A DNA stretch of 43,256 nt. Source: an uncultured Deferribacteres bacterium. Its GTDB lineage: Bacteria; Zhuqueibacterota; Zhuqueibacteria; Zhuqueibacterales; Geothermadaptataceae. Of the stretch, positions 12,001-27,000 are shown piece after piece. The position numbers were made by a program. Within the stretch, counting starts at the first letter, position 1; every line of letters starts with the position of its first letter. The stretch lies in contig CAXHAT010000048.1 of assembly GCA_964014485.1 (NCBI GenBank), forward strand, positions 1-43,256. Reading direction: 5' to 3'.

Positions 12001-15000
12001 CTCCGCAGCATTGTTATCCAAAGGAAAGATTTTTATTGGAAACAAAATATGCGTCTCGGCCTCGCCGAACTCAAAAAGTCTCAGTTTGAGCAGGCGGCGG
12101 AGTTCTTCAACATCGCGACGATCATATCACCGACCGAGGCGCTTGGTTACAGGCTATCTGGAGAAGCGTTCTGGGGGTTGGCCGATTCGCTTGAAAGTCG
12201 AAGACGATTTTTTACCAAGCTAAATGACCCGTCTCGAGCTGCGATTTTGGGTGAGAAAGCGCAGGCGGCTTTGCAAAACTCGAGAATTGCGTTTCAAAAC
12301 GTATTGCAACACGATTACAAAGATCATCGAGCGCGTCGATTCCTGATAAAAATTTATTTTGACACGGGTGCGTTTCATGAAGCGATAAAAGAAGCTGATA
12401 CGATGCTTCGCCTTAAGCCAAACGATAAAGAAGCCATGCGAATCCGCGCCTATTCTTTTGATAAGCTGGATCGTAGAGAAGAAGCGACAAAAGCTTACCG
12501 AGCGCTTGTTGAGAAAGAGCCTCTATCCGAAGATCTCGAATCTTTCGCGGCGTTTAATTATCGTCATGGAGCATACAACAACTCAGTTTTACTTTCCCAA
12601 AAGTCCATCCAGGCCGGCGGGGAGAGGGCGACCAACATGGAAGCCATTGCTCAATCTCGCCTTATGCAGCAAAATTTCCCGCAACTGTTTAGTACAGCGA
12701 ATGCAATTATTGCCGACGACCAATGGAATGTCAACGCTTTGATGTTAAGACAAGCTTCCGAACTTTCATTGGGTCAACTGGACGCAGCGAATAAAACCGC
12801 TTACGAATATATGAAAGCCGTCGCGCAAGCCCGTTTGATGGCGAAAAAATACCCCGCGCTTCTGCAATCCGCAGATGACCTTTTGAAAGCGGACAGCTCA
12901 AACGTACACCATTTACGATTGCGTTACATTGCGCTCGATTCGTTAGGCTATGAAGAAGCATTTAAAGCCAGGCTGCGCTTCCTGTACGCTTACACCGATT
13001 CTTTGCGAGGGGAAAAAGATTTCTTGGGCATGGTCGAAACAACCAATGTTGTTTTGGGGCTTGACAGTACAAATCGAACCGCGGCGAATATGCAGATTAT
13101 GGCATACGATTCATTGGCGTTGCCGCAAAAAGCTGATCAAGCTCAAATCAATTTGTGGCTCGCTATTGCTGGAAAAGCCTTTAGTGAGAAAAGATTTCAA
13201 CAAACACTGACGCGGTTGGACAGCGTTCTTAATCTGGATCAACTAGATCATCGTGCCCTCAAGATGCGCTACGTTTCTTACGATTCACTCAATTTGCCTC
13301 AAAAGGCGCGCGAAGCGGAAGTCATTTATATTAACGCGCTGGCCGGAGAAGACTTCACTAGAAAAGACTATCAGGAGCATCTGCGTATAGCTGACGAATT
13401 GCTCAAGATTAACAATATCAATAGAGACGCCGTCGAATTGAAAATCAATGCGCTGCTGGGCTTAAATAGAAAAGAAGAAGCAATTCAAACAAGAATTCGT
13501 TTTCTGTTTTCATATGCCGCTTCGCTCAAAGCTGTCGAATCTTATTCGGAAGTACTGCAAACGGCAAATCAAATTCTCGAAATAGAAAAACAAAACCTGC
13601 GCGCTTTAAAACTCAGAATGGATGCTTACGATTTGCTGAGTCAGAATACTGCTGCGAGATCAGCGGAAATAGAGTTTCGCCTCGCGTTGTCAGATTCTCT
13701 GAAGAAAGCAAGTGATTACAAGGGCGTGCTTGCTGAAGCCGATAACATCATTGCGATCAACCCGGTTCATTTGCAGGCGCTCGAAATGCGATTCAACGCT
13801 TTAACCGCGCTTGAATTGCCGGAAGAATCGAAAAAAGCGGAATTGAAATACCTCACCCAAGTTTCTGAAAAATATGAGAAGGAACAAAAAAACCGCGAGC
13901 TGATCAAAACGACCACGCGCATTTTGGAGATTGACCGAACAAACAAACAAGCGGCTGACAGAAAGATCGCAGCCCACCAATCTCTTGGCCAATCCAGGCT
14001 GGCGGAAGAAACGAAGTTCGAATACTGGTATGCTATGGCGCAATCGTATTTCGATCTGGAAAATTATGATCAGGTTCACAAATACGTTGATGAGATTCTA
14101 AGCGTGAATCCGGAACACCTTCCGGCTTTGAAAATGAAGCGCGCAGCTTTTCATTCAAGAGGGTTTATTGACGAAGCGTTGGCAATTCTTAAGAAAATTG
14201 AAATGTTGAGTGGGGAGAAATGAAAACAGAAAGGCAAAAACAAACAATTTTTCAGCAGAGTGCTTTGAAAAACGCCGCCTTCATTCTTGGCTTTCTACTT
14301 CTAATTGTGGCGGGCAAGGCGTATGGGCAGGGTTTGTCTCCGGATCAAACCATTCCAGTGCAGAATTCCGTATTGGCGCTTCCAGACGCTCCGATAGAGT
14401 TGACTTATCCAGAGGAAATTGACGCCGCCTCATTGCAAAACGAATTGTTTACGATTTACGGAGAGCACAACGGTTATTATTCAATCGGCTCGGTTCAGTT
14501 GTTGAATGAACAAAAAACGATTTCTATCACGGCGACCCCGAATTTTTTAGAAGGCGAAAATATCGTTTTCATGATGCGTGACGGCGTTAAAACTGATGGC
14601 GGCCAGAGCGTAACGCCGTTTCGATTGGAATTTCGAGTAAGCAATCGTGCTGGGATTATTCACGACGAGTTTTTTCCTGTTGATGTTGATTTGATTAGTG
14701 GCGAAAGCAGACCTGTACGCCTCACGGCGGGTCGATTTGACGAAGACGAATATATCGATCTTGCAGTGATCAGCCATGCTTCTAACCAAGTAACGGTCTT
14801 GCGGAATGACCGCGGATTGAGTTTCACGGAAATGTGGGCGGGCACTATCGCGAAACCGGCGGAAACGCCAATTAAGAATCTAGGCCCGTCTGATGTTGCC
14901 AGCGGCGATTTCAATGATGACGGTTTGGTCGATATTATCGTTTCTTTTACTGGAAGCGGTCGCGTTTATATTTTGTATAAAACGGGACCGGCGAGCTTTG

Positions 15001-24000: not shown

Positions 24001-27000
24001 CTGGATTCGAACAGCCTTTACATTTATGTGCTCAACCAAGCCATTTCACATATGCGCCTTTTTGAGGAAGAACCGACGTTTGTTCAATTGGATCGCGCAA
24101 AAGTCTTGGCTAGAACGGAAGAACAGCAAGAAAATGTAAAGACGTTTTATGATGCAGGCATGTGGGACGGCAGGAACCTCGTTGCGACGGACAAGCGAGA
24201 CACTTTGAGCGCCTATCTTGGACGCAAAGATTATAATGCGGCGGCAAAACTTTGTGAAGAGCTTTTGCCCAATTTGCGCACGCCCAAAGCGACGCAGGAA
24301 ATCAAGTGGCAGTTAGCAACTTTGGAATATATTGAATTAGATAAAAAAGACGCCGGGTTGACCAGAATGAAGCAAGTCGTCGATTTCTATGCCAACGACA
24401 GTTTGGGAATGGCGCTGGCGGAAACAGACACGATGTATCAATACTATCTTGATCGTTACGGCGTCATGTGCTTCAATAGCGGCCAAACTGCGGAAGAAAT
24501 AGGACGCGACCAGGTTGGAGCGCTAAAATATTACGAACAGTCCGCAAGTATTCCTTGGCAAAGCCAGGGAAAAGCGTACCTGGCCGTTGCTTCAATCGCC
24601 CAAAATGATCCCGAGAAATCTGTCAATGCGGCGAAAAAAGCGCTGGAACTGCAACGCCAGCTTGATCCGGAAGAAATATGTCAATCGCTGCAGTTGGTCG
24701 TGGCCGGCTACAGAAAAAGGCGCATGACTGATGAAGCACGGCCCTTTTTTCTAAAATATCGCGAATGTGAGGCTACAAACTAATGAAACGTCTTTTCAAT
24801 CGTTCATCTATTCTCGTAATCGTTTTAAGTATAACCGTGAACGCTTTGGTGTATGCTGCGTTCTCTCCGCCTAAACAGGCCGTCCAAAACGAACAGCCAG
24901 TGATCCAGCCGGTCATGGTGCAAACGGTGATGATCGTTGATGACGCCTTAATCGCCGACATGCTCGTTTCGAGCTTAATTCCCGAGAATCCGGCAACCGT
25001 CGATTCGATCCAGGTCATCGATGCGACAAGTAATGGTTTTGGGGAAAACGACATGATTATTTTGCATCCGCAGCAAATCTCTTACACGTTTAATGCGCAA
25101 GGCCAGGTTCGGGAATTGATGAAAAATTGGAAAACTCAGACAGGCCGACAGCTTGATTATGTTGACCTTACTCCTGACAGGTTAGATTCCATAAAACTGG
25201 ATGATGTTACTGAACAAGCCGCGAAGAACATGTTAAGCGGCATCTTACGCACGATTGAGCACAACTCAGACGCATCGGAAATGAAAGTATATCTGGAGCG
25301 TGAAAAAGGCGGGAAATTGTTTTTTCGCGTCTGGGGATATGATGAGGATAATGCAAACTCATTGAAACCAGGAGACCCTCGCGAATTATTTGGGTCGGGG
25401 TTGCCAACGCAGAATTATGATGTTTTCCGCGTTCACAGGCAAGACCTTGATACGCTGATCAACAACACCGCGACGATGTACGACCAAATCTATATTTACC
25501 GCTTTGAGACCGACACGGTTTTCGTTTCGCCTGGGGATGATCAAATCAGGACTTTGTACGAAAAAGCAAAACTCCCTGGGCTGACTCGTCCAAGCTTGAA
25601 AGAAAAGAAATAGACGGAAGATTTAAAAGAAGAGCAATTATTCTCTCCAAGCTTGCAAAAGCAAACATGTGTTTAACCCGCCCGAGCCAAAGTTGCCTTT
25701 GGCCATAATTCCCACTTTTTCATTGCTCTTGGTCTTACGTACGATCCGATTTTCGACCGGCTTCAAAGCCTCGTCAAGACGCTCGCAATTTTTTGAAGGG
25801 TGTAGGAATTCGTGGTGAATTTGTAAAACCGAGGCCGCCGATTCCATGCCGCCCGCTGCTCCAAGACCGTGACCAATGAGAGATTTTGTTGCGTTAATGA
25901 AGGGCATGTTGTCGTCGTTTACGCCGAGCGCTCGCCGCCAGGCAAATATCTCCTGAACGTCTTCCGGGGCGCCAATGAGATTTCCATTTATTGCATCCAC
26001 CTGCCCGCCTGAAATTTTTGCGTCATCCAATGCAAGTTTGATGCAGTGTGCTATGCTTTCTACTTCCAGCGTTTGCGACTGACGATGATTCGCTCTGCCG
26101 CCGGCGCTGTGCGCTACGCCGATGATTTCAGCGTAAATTCGAGCCCCTCTCTCCCGCGCAATTTTTTCGTCTTCAAGTACTAAAATACCGGCTCCGGCAG
26201 CCGGCACAAACCCGGTTGCATCGGCGCTCATGGGACGGGAAGCTTGGTCCGGCGTATCGTTGTGTCTGCGGTTTAACATACCCTTTGCGTCAAAACCAGC
26301 CCACGTATAAATCGAAACGCCTTCTATTCCACCTGCAAGCATGCGATTCGCATAACCGTGTCGAATCCATCGTGCGGCTTCAGCGATGGCTGCCGTTCCG
26401 GTATTTGCTACGCCGCAATTGGTAGAAACACGATTCCCCAGCCCAAGTAAATAGGCGGCCCGCACGGCAACGCCGTTCGGAATAATCCGTTCAATCGTGT
26501 TTCTGTCCAAACGCCGGACGCGCTTGGCGTTGGTCAGCGGAACAACTTCTCGGGCTACCGTATCTAGACCGCCAAAGCCGGTGCCAAGAATTGCGCCTGA
26601 ATTCCACAAAATCTGCTCGTTTGTTTCATCGGGAATTTCCAGGCCGGCGTCGCGCCAAGCGGCGAGAACCGCTGTTTCACCGAATTGCATGAACGTGTTA
26701 TTCGATTCTTGCGGTCTGTGAGAAGGCTGATCATCCGAGTATTCGGGGATTCCGGCAACGCGGCAGCCGAATTTGTGTTCTGCGAGTTTCGGAACATACC
26801 GAAGCCCTGACTTTCCTGACTTCAATGCGTCAAGAAATGAAGATTTGTCCGGCGCATTCGGGGCTACAACCCCCAAGCCGGTTACAACAACTCTGTTCAT
26901 CTCTAAATAACTTTCCGCTCATACGTGCCGAATCAATGCTTGCGAAAATGCCAGCTGGACAACCGACATAAAAAAAGCGGATGGGATTAAAATCCGCAGT

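Follow-up and report, generated by a model that had tools for sequence, protein, structure and literature searches.

Positions 11623-25613 of the window (the whole stretch of 43,256 nucleotides analysed here) hold a gene cluster that links an Exb-type stator to a type IX secretion system (T9SS) cargo and its PorP/SprF carrier. Comparison across genomes supports a conserved module, whose link to type-B cargo and PorP carriers spans several phylum-level lineages. We consider, with modest confidence, that each such module is a private energy chain, running from the Exb stator through a bitopic protein (p352) to the carrier, that serves a single type-B carrier with its adhesin, and that it is probably not a general replacement of the T9SS motor.

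Gene content and profile annotation describe a single co-directional cluster, and the annotation of each gene bore out the content that the preliminary description had given for 14220-25613. The cluster probably starts one gene before the cargo, at an 866-aa TPR gene whose stop overlaps the start codon of the cargo gene; phmmer found relatives of its product, as ORFs of 336-411 aa, at 14 of the related loci, in most cases upstream of the cargo. The genes are as follows.

11623-14223, + strand: 866-aa TPR protein (TPR families) with one N-terminal hydrophobic segment
14220-17771, + strand: adhesin-like T9SS cargo of 1183 aa, with signal peptide, FG-GAP_3, Ig-like and CHU_C domains
17722-19635, + strand: PorP_SprF carrier of 637 aa (PF11751)
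19677-21347, + strand: ExbB/TolQ/MotA-family stator subunit of 556 aa (MotA_ExbB PF01618 plus Big_1)
21340-21771, + strand: ExbD/TolR-family subunit a (ExbDa), 143 aa (PF02472)
21790-22212, + strand: ExbD/TolR-family subunit b (ExbDb), 140 aa (PF02472)
22209-23267, + strand: p352, a bitopic protein of 352 aa without a family in Pfam or NCBIfam
23245-24783, + strand: TPR protein of 512 aa (TPR families) whose start resembles a lipoprotein signal
24783-25613, + strand: p276, 276 aa, family-less; has a hydrophobic segment at the N terminus and is the final module gene

The stator subunits are assigned by family rather than by subtype. ExbB scores 49.3 bits against PF01618 (cut-off 22.9), which places it in the ExbB/TolQ/MotA family, and reaches at most 20 bits with the equivalog models for ExbB, TolQ and MotA. 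It has an N-terminal signal-like segment and a C-terminal tail of about 300 aa with a Big_1 Ig-like domain (41.4 bits); if the usual ExbB topology applies, this tail would be cytoplasmic, a placement for which we have no explanation. The TM2/TM3 core, with T197 and T226 among its residues, is kept in 57-58 of 58 family members. ExbDa (42.9 bits) and ExbDb (27.7 bits) both exceed the PF02472 cut-off of 25.4 and belong to the ExbD/TolR family. The transmembrane aspartate is retained in 61 of 62 ExbDa (D20) and in all 63 ExbDb (D11), and a cysteine is invariant in each (Cys125, 62/62; Cys122, 63/63). From the kept aspartates and the ExbB core, the stator looks like a working one.

Two ExbD subunits that keep the transmembrane aspartate, an ExbB-family partner, a bitopic protein in the TonB position and a TPR gene next to it recall the form of the Ton system that has two ExbD and a TPR gene. 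In the AF2 model of p352, a helix at residues 3-28 is followed by a low-confidence stretch (50-205) rich in Glu, Pro and Lys, matching the membrane anchor and Pro-rich linker of TonB, and the transmembrane helix has a single conserved face (S11, T15, L19, Y/F23). The model builds the C-domain from six strands plus a long helix at the C terminus, with block means of pLDDT mostly between 82 and 98. It differs from TonB in matching no TonB profile: p352 had no match at E<=0.01 in Pfam or NCBIfam, including TonB_C (PF03544), TonB_2 (PF13103) and tonB_Cterm (TIGR01352), whereas TonB-like proteins of the same genome do match such profiles. Fold comparison returned no convincing relative (best Z 6.2), and no TonB was among the best 50 matches listed. 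The family counts 248 representatives among 1.84 billion proteins, and the relatives are annotated in their sources only as 'hypothetical protein'. As the C-domain has no recognisable relative, a TonB-like role is suggested solely by architecture and gene position, and the earlier characterization of the protein as TonB-shaped holds for its architecture and not for its C-domain.

It is conceivable that the operon is an ordinary TonB-type uptake energiser that chances to adjoin T9SS genes and powers TonB-dependent transporters. The order ExbB-ExbD-ExbD-(TonB-like)-TPR matches that of Ton operons in which a second ExbD and a TPR gene occur, an order typical of Bacteroidota; a comparable set (TPR, ExbB, ExbD, ExbD, TonB-like protein, in that order) is found at a locus on contig C51 of this genome, and the helix and linker of p352 are in the style of TonB. 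However, apart from the missing TonB profile matches, the annotated module genes include no TonB-dependent receptor: unlike in the Ton system, the encoded partner is a PorP carrier with a T9SS cargo, linked to the module at 27 of 28 loci in several phylum-level lineages, and the module ExbB, at up to 556 aa, differs from that of the Ton system by its Ig-like tail. Separately from the module, the genome encodes ordinary Ton/Tol sets that include TonB_C or TonB_2 proteins; the module is therefore additional to them. We regard the uptake explanation as very improbable.

Two further genes follow p352. The 512-aa TPR protein shows on inspection a putative lipobox cysteine near its start and is presumably a lipoprotein by the lipobox rule, and p276 belongs to a set of three paralogues in the genome (25-29% identity) with no family in Pfam or NCBIfam.

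Besides FG-GAP/VCBS repeats, the cargo has a number of Ig-like, CARDB and cadherin-like domains, and it ends in a type-B sorting domain (CTD): residues 1097-1181 match CHU_C (PF13585) with 39.9 bits (cut-off 27), and the type-B model TIGR04131 gives 19.9 bits, under its cut-off of 35. Its neighbour is a member of the PorP/SprF family (PF11751, 40.9 bits, cut-off 22.3) that falls short of the narrower NCBIfam subfamily model TIGR03519 (38.1 bits against 90.55). The AF2 model of the carrier (mean pLDDT 79.5) contains a beta-barrel at about 69-304, of the FadL/PorV-like type to judge from Foldseek matches to FadL, OmpG and PorV (8gl6_F, 6h3i_F; E 1e-6 to 4e-8). Beyond the barrel, residues 378-427 are disordered, 428-485 form an alpha/beta part and 509-618 a sandwich, so that the C-terminal extension of about 330 aa ends in an Ig-like sandwich.

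According to the available text of PMC12635249, an inner-membrane motor driven by the proton motive force in the T9SS of Flavobacterium and Porphyromonas is thought to transmit force through the periplasm to a carrier of the PorP/SprF family that bears a type-B CTD adhesin, and every type-B cargo is paired with a carrier of its own. The same text describes the Flavobacterium SprF as coupling the adhesin to a moving track, its periplasmic C-tail being disulfide-bonded to GldK through conserved twin cysteines. The module resembles this chain in its carrier barrel and cargo CTD, both of which exceed the Pfam cut-offs. It differs from the GldLM/PorLM chain in that GldL, GldM, GldN and GldK are undetectable and its stator subunits are members of the ExbB/ExbD families rather than GldL/GldM; it differs from SprF in that the carrier has the Ig-like-ended extension and lacks the twin-cysteine tail. 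The window carrier has one cysteine, within the signal region, and most of the 55 module carriers (median length 594 aa) have none outside the N-terminal signal region, so the short twin-cysteine tail through which SprF couples to GldK is absent from the window carrier and from most of these. A further difference is that each cargo has a separate motor in the module, in place of a shared GldK/N(/J) track or PorKN ring.

An adhesin propulsion or focal-adhesion machine offers another parallel. The Agl-Glt gliding system of Myxococcus and its relative Nfs have one TolQ-like and two TolR-like subunits and a bitopic Pro-rich protein, together with TPR proteins, a barrel in the outer membrane and an adhesin at the surface. 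By analogy, the stator and p352 might move or hold a PorP-anchored adhesin to allow gliding or attachment to surfaces, with secretion powered otherwise. The likeness is one of part lists, with homology evident for the stator families only, and the cargos are all adhesin-like (FG-GAP and Ig-like in the window, VWA plus cohesin in the C3 cluster). The coupling of an adhesin to a moving track by the Flavobacterium SprF, as given in the available part of PMC12635249, would also fit. However, the outer-membrane part of the module is a T9SS carrier and its adhesin has a T9SS sorting domain; p352 lacks the AgmX/PglI (GltG/GltJ-type) C-terminal domain (no match to NF033768 or NF033760), although P0151 of the same genome has one (66 bits, cut-off 40), and no track component is evident. 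Such a machine as the whole explanation appears doubtful.

The private energy chain is consistent with how the module is conserved. Relatives of p352 occur at 69 loci in public genomes, with record titles naming Calditrichota, KSB1, Zhuqueibacterota, Balneolales, Gemmatimonadota and Melioribacteraceae. Full flanks, meaning 8.5 kb or more upstream and 6.5 kb or more downstream, are available at 28 loci. ExbB and p276 were each present at all 28 of these, and ExbDa, ExbDb, the TPR protein, PorP and the CTD cargo each at 27; PorP and a cargo with a related CTD were neighbours at 27. Four gene orders were distinguished: that of the window (30 loci), that of the C3 cluster (18), that of the C16 cluster (2) and a fourth (5 loci) of cargo-PorP-p352-TPR-p276 without ExbBD, and in 3 of these 5 cases the assembly also has a complete module. 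In the Rhodothermales genome G034, a core of ExbB, two ExbD, p352, TPR and p276-like proteins adjoins DUF4402 proteins and unknown proteins of 760-790 aa; neither PorP nor a CTD cargo was seen inside the operon as read, and the core is therefore not tied to PorP everywhere. Operon linkage is also compatible with roles other than energy supply, such as assembly or anchoring.

The genome of the window (97% complete) has a T9SS translocon set without detectable GldK, GldL, GldM or GldN, as the profile searches support. SprA (693 bits) and PorU (825 bits) are present, as are PorV-like genes, with 19 matches here in place of the 21 counted before, and at least 48 CTD-like tails were recognised among 51 scored of 188 candidates. 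Searches of the whole genome agreed with the reported lack of a GldL/GldM motor: GldM gave no match to PF12081 and none at E<=1 to TIGR03517, GldN none to TIGR03523, GldL only noise (TIGR03513, E 0.3), and GldK peaked at 78 bits, where the cut-off is 350 (TIGR03525). The positive controls matched, GldM in 29 of 121 genomes of the Bacteroidota sample and GldL in G216, directly upstream of the GldM of that genome. The paralogous clusters on contigs C16 and C3 were recovered as well and are diverged from that of the window, the p352 and p276 paralogues of the three clusters sharing just 22-29% identity; they account, with the window, for three of the four PorP_SprF matches in the genome, the fourth being a PorP+OmpA fusion on C185.

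The preliminary description had read the PorP-linked Exb operons as the energy source of type IX secretion in these lineages, replacing GldLM; on that reading they would power SprA for all cargo. Several observations favour this: GldM is absent from all 42 module genomes by profile search and the module marker from all 29 GldM-positive genomes of the Bacteroidota sample, SprA (SprA_N) is present in 41 of the 42, and no other motor candidate was found beside SprA on C104; the known system, in the available text of PMC12635249, requires some energy source. GldL was likewise absent from the 4 module genomes tested, with G216 as the positive control, and GldK over its cut-off from 5 genomes. In the genomes surveyed, the module is confined to lineages without the usual type IX secretion motor. 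What stands of the earlier reading is the translocon set without detectable GldK/L/M/N, the tie to type-B cargo and PorP, and the lack of any surveyed genome with both marker and GldM; what finds no support is the general motor. Of the high-quality genomes sampled from the phylum of the window, all 97 had SprA, none had GldM over its cut-off and 40 had the marker, which leaves 57 with SprA and neither GldM nor module; in the class of G034, the corresponding figures were 151, 0 and 28 of 151, leaving 123. Hence most SprA-positive, GldLM-less genomes manage without the module, and because the combination of SprA and no GldM far outnumbers the module, the module can hardly be a general T9SS engine. 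Only 63 of the 121 genomes in the phylum sample, moreover, have a PorP_SprF match. Earlier work cited in PMC6539836, to the extent that its accessible text relates it, found a CTD xylanase of Rhodothermus marinus to be cell-attached, and the pathway therefore seems to work in that lineage. Three diverged paralogues, each by its own cargo and carrier, are also unlike one shared motor, and a motor for the whole system is improbable.

The same three paralogues are easier to reconcile with cargo-specific machines than with a single shared motor, and for the private energy chain we infer contacts, a direction of energy flow and an energised step as follows. The ExbB-ExbDa/ExbDb stator would turn proton flow into movement and pass this on to p352 by way of its transmembrane helix; the long, flexible linker of p352 would cross the periplasm. 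The p352 C-domain, aided by the TPR lipoprotein and p276, may then engage the extension of the carrier, which is expected to face the periplasm. The resulting pull or torque could free the complex of carrier and cargo from the SprA translocon, could move the surface adhesin or put it under tension, or could do both. The module lineages lack the GldLM motor of Flavobacterium, its GldK/N(/J) track and its disulfide link between SprF and GldK, and for a single type-B cargo the module would thereby substitute for all of them.

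The cluster under study comprises nine tightly packed genes, all co-directional on the + strand according to the ORF listing and the profile scans of the window, and is followed by a convergent gene.

Genes of the cluster and its downstream neighbour
11623-14223, + strand: TPR protein, 866 aa, its stop codon overlapping the start of the next gene
14220-17771, + strand: cargo protein, 1183 aa, with FG-GAP repeats, several Ig-like domains, CARDB and cadherin-like domains and a C-terminal CHU_C domain
17722-19635, + strand: PorP_SprF protein (the carrier), 637 aa
19677-21347, + strand: MotA_ExbB protein, 556 aa, with a Big_1 domain close to its C-terminus
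21340-21771 and 21790-22212, + strand: two ExbD proteins (ExbDa and ExbDb)
22209-23267, + strand: p352, 352 aa, without a family
23245-24783, + strand: TPR protein, 512 aa, its start resembling a lipoprotein signal
24783-25613, + strand: p276, 276 aa, without a family
25638-26900, minus strand: FabF-like synthase, convergent, next after p276

A scan for regulatory sites counted 26 promoter-like sites, where 17.6 were expected, and 20 terminator-like ones (24.6 expected). Three DNA sequencing runs, all from one study, contain the stretch, and no RNA data sets containing it were found. Divergent from the module and separated from it by a spacer of 1.2 kb with a lower G+C content (0.43), the minus strand encodes a 1981-aa protein with IgGFc_binding, Glucodextran_B and cadherin-like domains (window 4483-10428). 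Farther along, a 924-aa protein on the + strand (window 34550-37324) has as its sole Pfam match a C-terminal FlgD_ig domain (residues 858-911), which in position and fold type is as in a type IX secretion system (T9SS) sorting domain (CTD).

The same genome carries two paralogous clusters on contigs C16 and C3, as the preliminary description had stated; they are built from the same families in different gene orders. Their copies of p352 and p276 share only 22-29% identity with those of the window, and the triplication is therefore old. Also in line with that description, there are four PorP_SprF matches in the genome, three of them inside these clusters. The fourth, on contig C185 (locus L003:6004-8394, minus strand), is a 796-aa fusion of PorP_SprF with an OmpA domain that lies beside a type-A CTD protein and scores 103 bits with TIGR03519, above the cut-off; it may serve this T9SS as its general PorP, anchored to peptidoglycan. 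The same contig also has a DarT and macro-domain pair (L003:10506-12214).

The transmembrane Asp is kept in both ExbD families (61/62 and 63/63 relatives), and the periplasmic part of each ExbD, in the window and among relatives, has an invariant Cys (62/62 and 63/63), so that the pair may form an ExbDa-ExbDb disulfide. In ExbB the TM2/TM3 core is conserved across the family, and the long C-terminal tail, which would be cytoplasmic under the usual ExbB topology, is variable in length (family median 327 aa, up to 546). The structure model of p352 (mean pLDDT 73.6) has an N-terminal helix at residues 3-28 with a single conserved face (positions 11, 15, 19 and 23), an arrangement comparable to that of TonB, followed by a low-confidence Glu/Pro/Lys-rich stretch at about 50-205 and a confidently modelled C-terminal domain in which six strands are combined with a long helix. 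This last domain has no Pfam or NCBIfam match; Foldseek against the PDB returned nothing at E<=0.001, the top Z in a wide VIA search was 6.2 (chance level), and the Atlas comparison reached a best feature score of 0.84 with TM <=0.42. A p352 profile run against PDB sequences found only a match to the TM/linker part of MotB (E 0.005), word-based protein searches returned only p352 itself in one case and three proteins in another, and relatives are labelled only 'hypothetical protein' in their source records. For the carrier, the model (mean pLDDT 79.5) has a barrel resembling FadL, OmpG and PorV, which is followed by a hairpin, a disordered stretch, then a small alpha/beta part and finally an Ig-like sandwich. 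The barrel topology would place this modelled extension in the periplasm, in agreement with what has been published on the C-tail of SprF. Most module carriers lack Cys outside the N-terminal signal region.

Conservation of the module was traced with a profile built on the C-terminal domain of p352 (alignment A3), used below as the marker. The p352 family has 248 cluster representatives in 1.84 billion proteins, mostly of 300-370 aa, and the profile matches at 69 loci when one genome per bacterial or archaeal species is searched. Record titles at these loci name Calditrichota, candidate division KSB1, Zhuqueibacterota, Balneolales/Balneolaceae/Cyclonatronaceae, Rhodothermales, Gemmatimonadota and Melioribacteraceae, several of these labels being generic or doubtful. 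HMMs made for each gene from the three paralogues were run across all ORFs of the p352 loci, and at the 28 loci with full flanks (at least 8.5 kb upstream and at least 6.5 kb downstream of p352) ExbB and p276 were present in 28/28 and ExbDa, ExbDb, TPR, PorP and the CTD cargo in 27/28 each. Four gene orders recur: cargo-PorP-ExbB-ExbD-ExbD-p352-TPR-p276 as in the window (30 loci); PorP-ExbB-cargo(s)-ExbD-ExbD-p352-TPR-p276 as on C3 (18 loci); the C16 order, with the motor genes at the start and cargo-PorP at the end (2 loci); and cargo-PorP-p352-TPR-p276 without ExbBD (5 loci: L015, L016, L019, L021 and L023). Since three of the five assemblies with this last variant also carry a complete module (at L060, L063 and L073), there are hints that one stator can be common to several modules.

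The only full-flank locus without PorP belongs to G034, a Rhodothermales genome, in which three copies of the core (L083:8544-19703, L084:8946-19357 and L085) consist of a short ExbB, two ExbD, p352 and TPR, with a p276-like gene a few kb distant. Their neighbours are DUF4402 proteins, unknown proteins of 760-790 aa and a CarboxypepD_reg protein, with no PorP or CTD cargo, and the same motor unit may there serve a different surface structure. Because these copies have other neighbours in place of PorP and cargo, the six-gene core (ExbB, ExbDa, ExbDb, p352, TPR and p276) appears to be portable: in most cases, though not in all, it is joined to a PorP carrier with the cargo of that carrier.

Type IX secretion and gliding in Bacteroidota are thought to need a single dedicated motor (GldLM) and a track with disulfide-bonded carriers. 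In the genome of the window, which is 97% complete, profile searches recovered SprA at 693 bits and PorU at 825 bits, together with 19 PorV-like matches that reach at most 247.9 bits (cut-off 250). GldM (PF12081, TIGR03517) and GldN (TIGR03523) gave no matches even at E<=10 or E<=1, GldL (TIGR03513) gave a single noise match (E 0.3), and GldK (TIGR03525) gave partial matches only, none above 78 bits (cut-off 350). The profiles may miss GldL and GldM if the two have diverged too far; in the control sample of 121 Bacteroidota genomes, taken around G034, the GldM profile was positive in 29/121, GldL lay directly upstream of GldM in the control genome G216, and the two profiles picked up matches as weak as E 5.8e-8. 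The Gld profiles thus work in controls, and the earlier observation of a translocon with SprA, PorU and PorV-like proteins in which GldL, GldM and GldN are undetected is confirmed.

The preliminary description went further and took the Exb operons to be the likely energy source of type IX secretion in Zhuqueibacterota, in place of GldLM. Several patterns agree with this, all of them confounded by ancestry: GldM is found in 0/42 and SprA_N in 41/42 of the module genomes, GldL is found in 0/4 of those tested, and in the Bacteroidota sample the marker occurs in 2/121 genomes, both GldM-negative, hence in 0/29 of the GldM-positive ones. The wider samples, however, separate SprA from the module. 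In the phylum of the window, SprA is present in 119/121 genomes and the marker in 44/121, with no GldM match over the cut-off (one match at 21.5 bits, E 4.7e-4); in its 97 high-quality genomes the figures are 97/97 for SprA, 40/97 for the marker and none over the cut-off for GldM, and in the class of G034 they are 151/151, 28/151 and 0/151, respectively. SprA-bearing genomes with neither GldM nor the module therefore amount to 57/97 in the phylum and 123/151 in the class, and on these counts the module cannot be what powers the T9SS in general. Moreover, the marker is restricted to some families of the phylum sample (f1 7/7, f2 11/11, f3 13/14 and f8 6/7, with 0 in many others), PorP_SprF occurs in only 63/121 genomes of that sample, and NCBIfam models find both GldL and GldM absent in five genomes, four of them from the G034 class. 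These absence counts refer to the genomes searched in the samples named, and genomes reached through loci come without completeness figures; one f2 genome flagged as unpublished (G369) is counted among the 121 of the phylum, with no claim resting on it alone, and the group names for the class and phylum of G034 are ones we infer. A Rhodothermaceae xylanase paper (PMC6539836) cites earlier work in which a CTD-bearing xylanase of Rhodothermus marinus was cell-attached, so export that depends on the CTD seems to operate in that lineage. Should the module motors work on SprA in trans as well, the wider claim would be right for those genomes that carry them.

No other locus in the genome offers itself as a general substitute. 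The SprA neighbourhood on contig C104 has no motor genes, and MotA-like genes on C46, C14 and C60 were rejected as T9SS motors on account of their unrelated contexts (caspase-FGE, Hsp70/Hsp90/OmpA and Cas1, respectively). At the C46 locus (L004:1123-5634) the MotA-like protein has 407 aa and adjoins a 916-aa caspase and FGE-sulfatase protein and an integrase; at the C14 locus (L006:5893-11257) it has 537 aa, and its neighbours are ATPases of the Hsp70- and Hsp90-like kinds and a protein with an OmpA domain. Both loci may be defence or conflict systems. A cluster on C51 (L088:5016-11584) encodes a 980-aa TPR protein, a 123-aa protein, a TolQ-like protein, two TolR/ExbD proteins and the 443-aa P0151, in which a cytoplasmic N-domain, a TM segment and a Pro/Glu-rich linker precede a GltG-like C-terminal AgmX/PglI domain (66 bits against a cut-off of 40), and this cluster of an FCB genome resembles the Agl-Glt core. 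AgmX/PglI is above the cut-off in only 9/121 genomes of the Bacteroidota sample, however, and such a TolQ-TolR-TolR locus with a GltG-like protein is therefore no general T9SS motor substitute.

As for the carriers themselves, a study of Flavobacterium (Liu et al. 2025, PMC12635249) describes every type-B cargo as staying attached to a PorP/SprF-like carrier of its own, the expulsion of this carrier-cargo complex from SprA as the energy-requiring step, and twin cysteines in SprF's periplasmic C-tail as disulfide-bonded to GldK, which sits on a moving track powered by GldLM motors. In contrast, GldL, GldM, GldN and GldK all go undetected in module-bearing lineages, whose carriers have a long extension instead of the twin cysteines and adjoin genes for a stator and a predicted periplasm-spanning protein. 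The simplest reading is that each carrier would have a private energy chain, in which an Exb stator would act through the putatively periplasm-spanning p352 on the carrier extension. On this reading the module would be an Exb/Tol-type stator with a new transducer family, wired to T9SS type-B carriers. A broader proposal is offered tentatively, as one that we consider rather doubtful: that T9SS carriers can be energised by a Ton/Tol-like stator, that FCB bacteria without GldLM give each type-B adhesin-carrier pair its own Exb-type motor and p352 as a new periplasm-spanning transducer, that this is an alternative, perhaps older, to GldLM and the shared GldK/N/J track of Bacteroidia/Flavobacteriia, and that the same six-gene core is plugged into other outer-membrane devices in Rhodothermales.

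In the literature searched, which took in few subscription journals, neither PorP-linked Exb operons nor T9SS lineages without GldLM were found to be described, and the Zhuqueibacterota paper (PMC11683472) mentions none of secretion, T9SS, gliding, motility, TonB or flagell-. This suggests, but does not prove, that the module is previously undescribed; p352, on the analyses presented here, would be a putative transducer of a new, previously unnamed family. Two large groups without detectable GldM have SprA in nearly every genome, and this poses the question of what powers secretion there. In part of these lineages type-B carriers are accompanied by a putative Exb-type motor of their own and by a transducer family not named before, a concrete, testable case of a different energy chain for a T9SS carrier; the module also bears on the evolution of the T9SS and of gliding.
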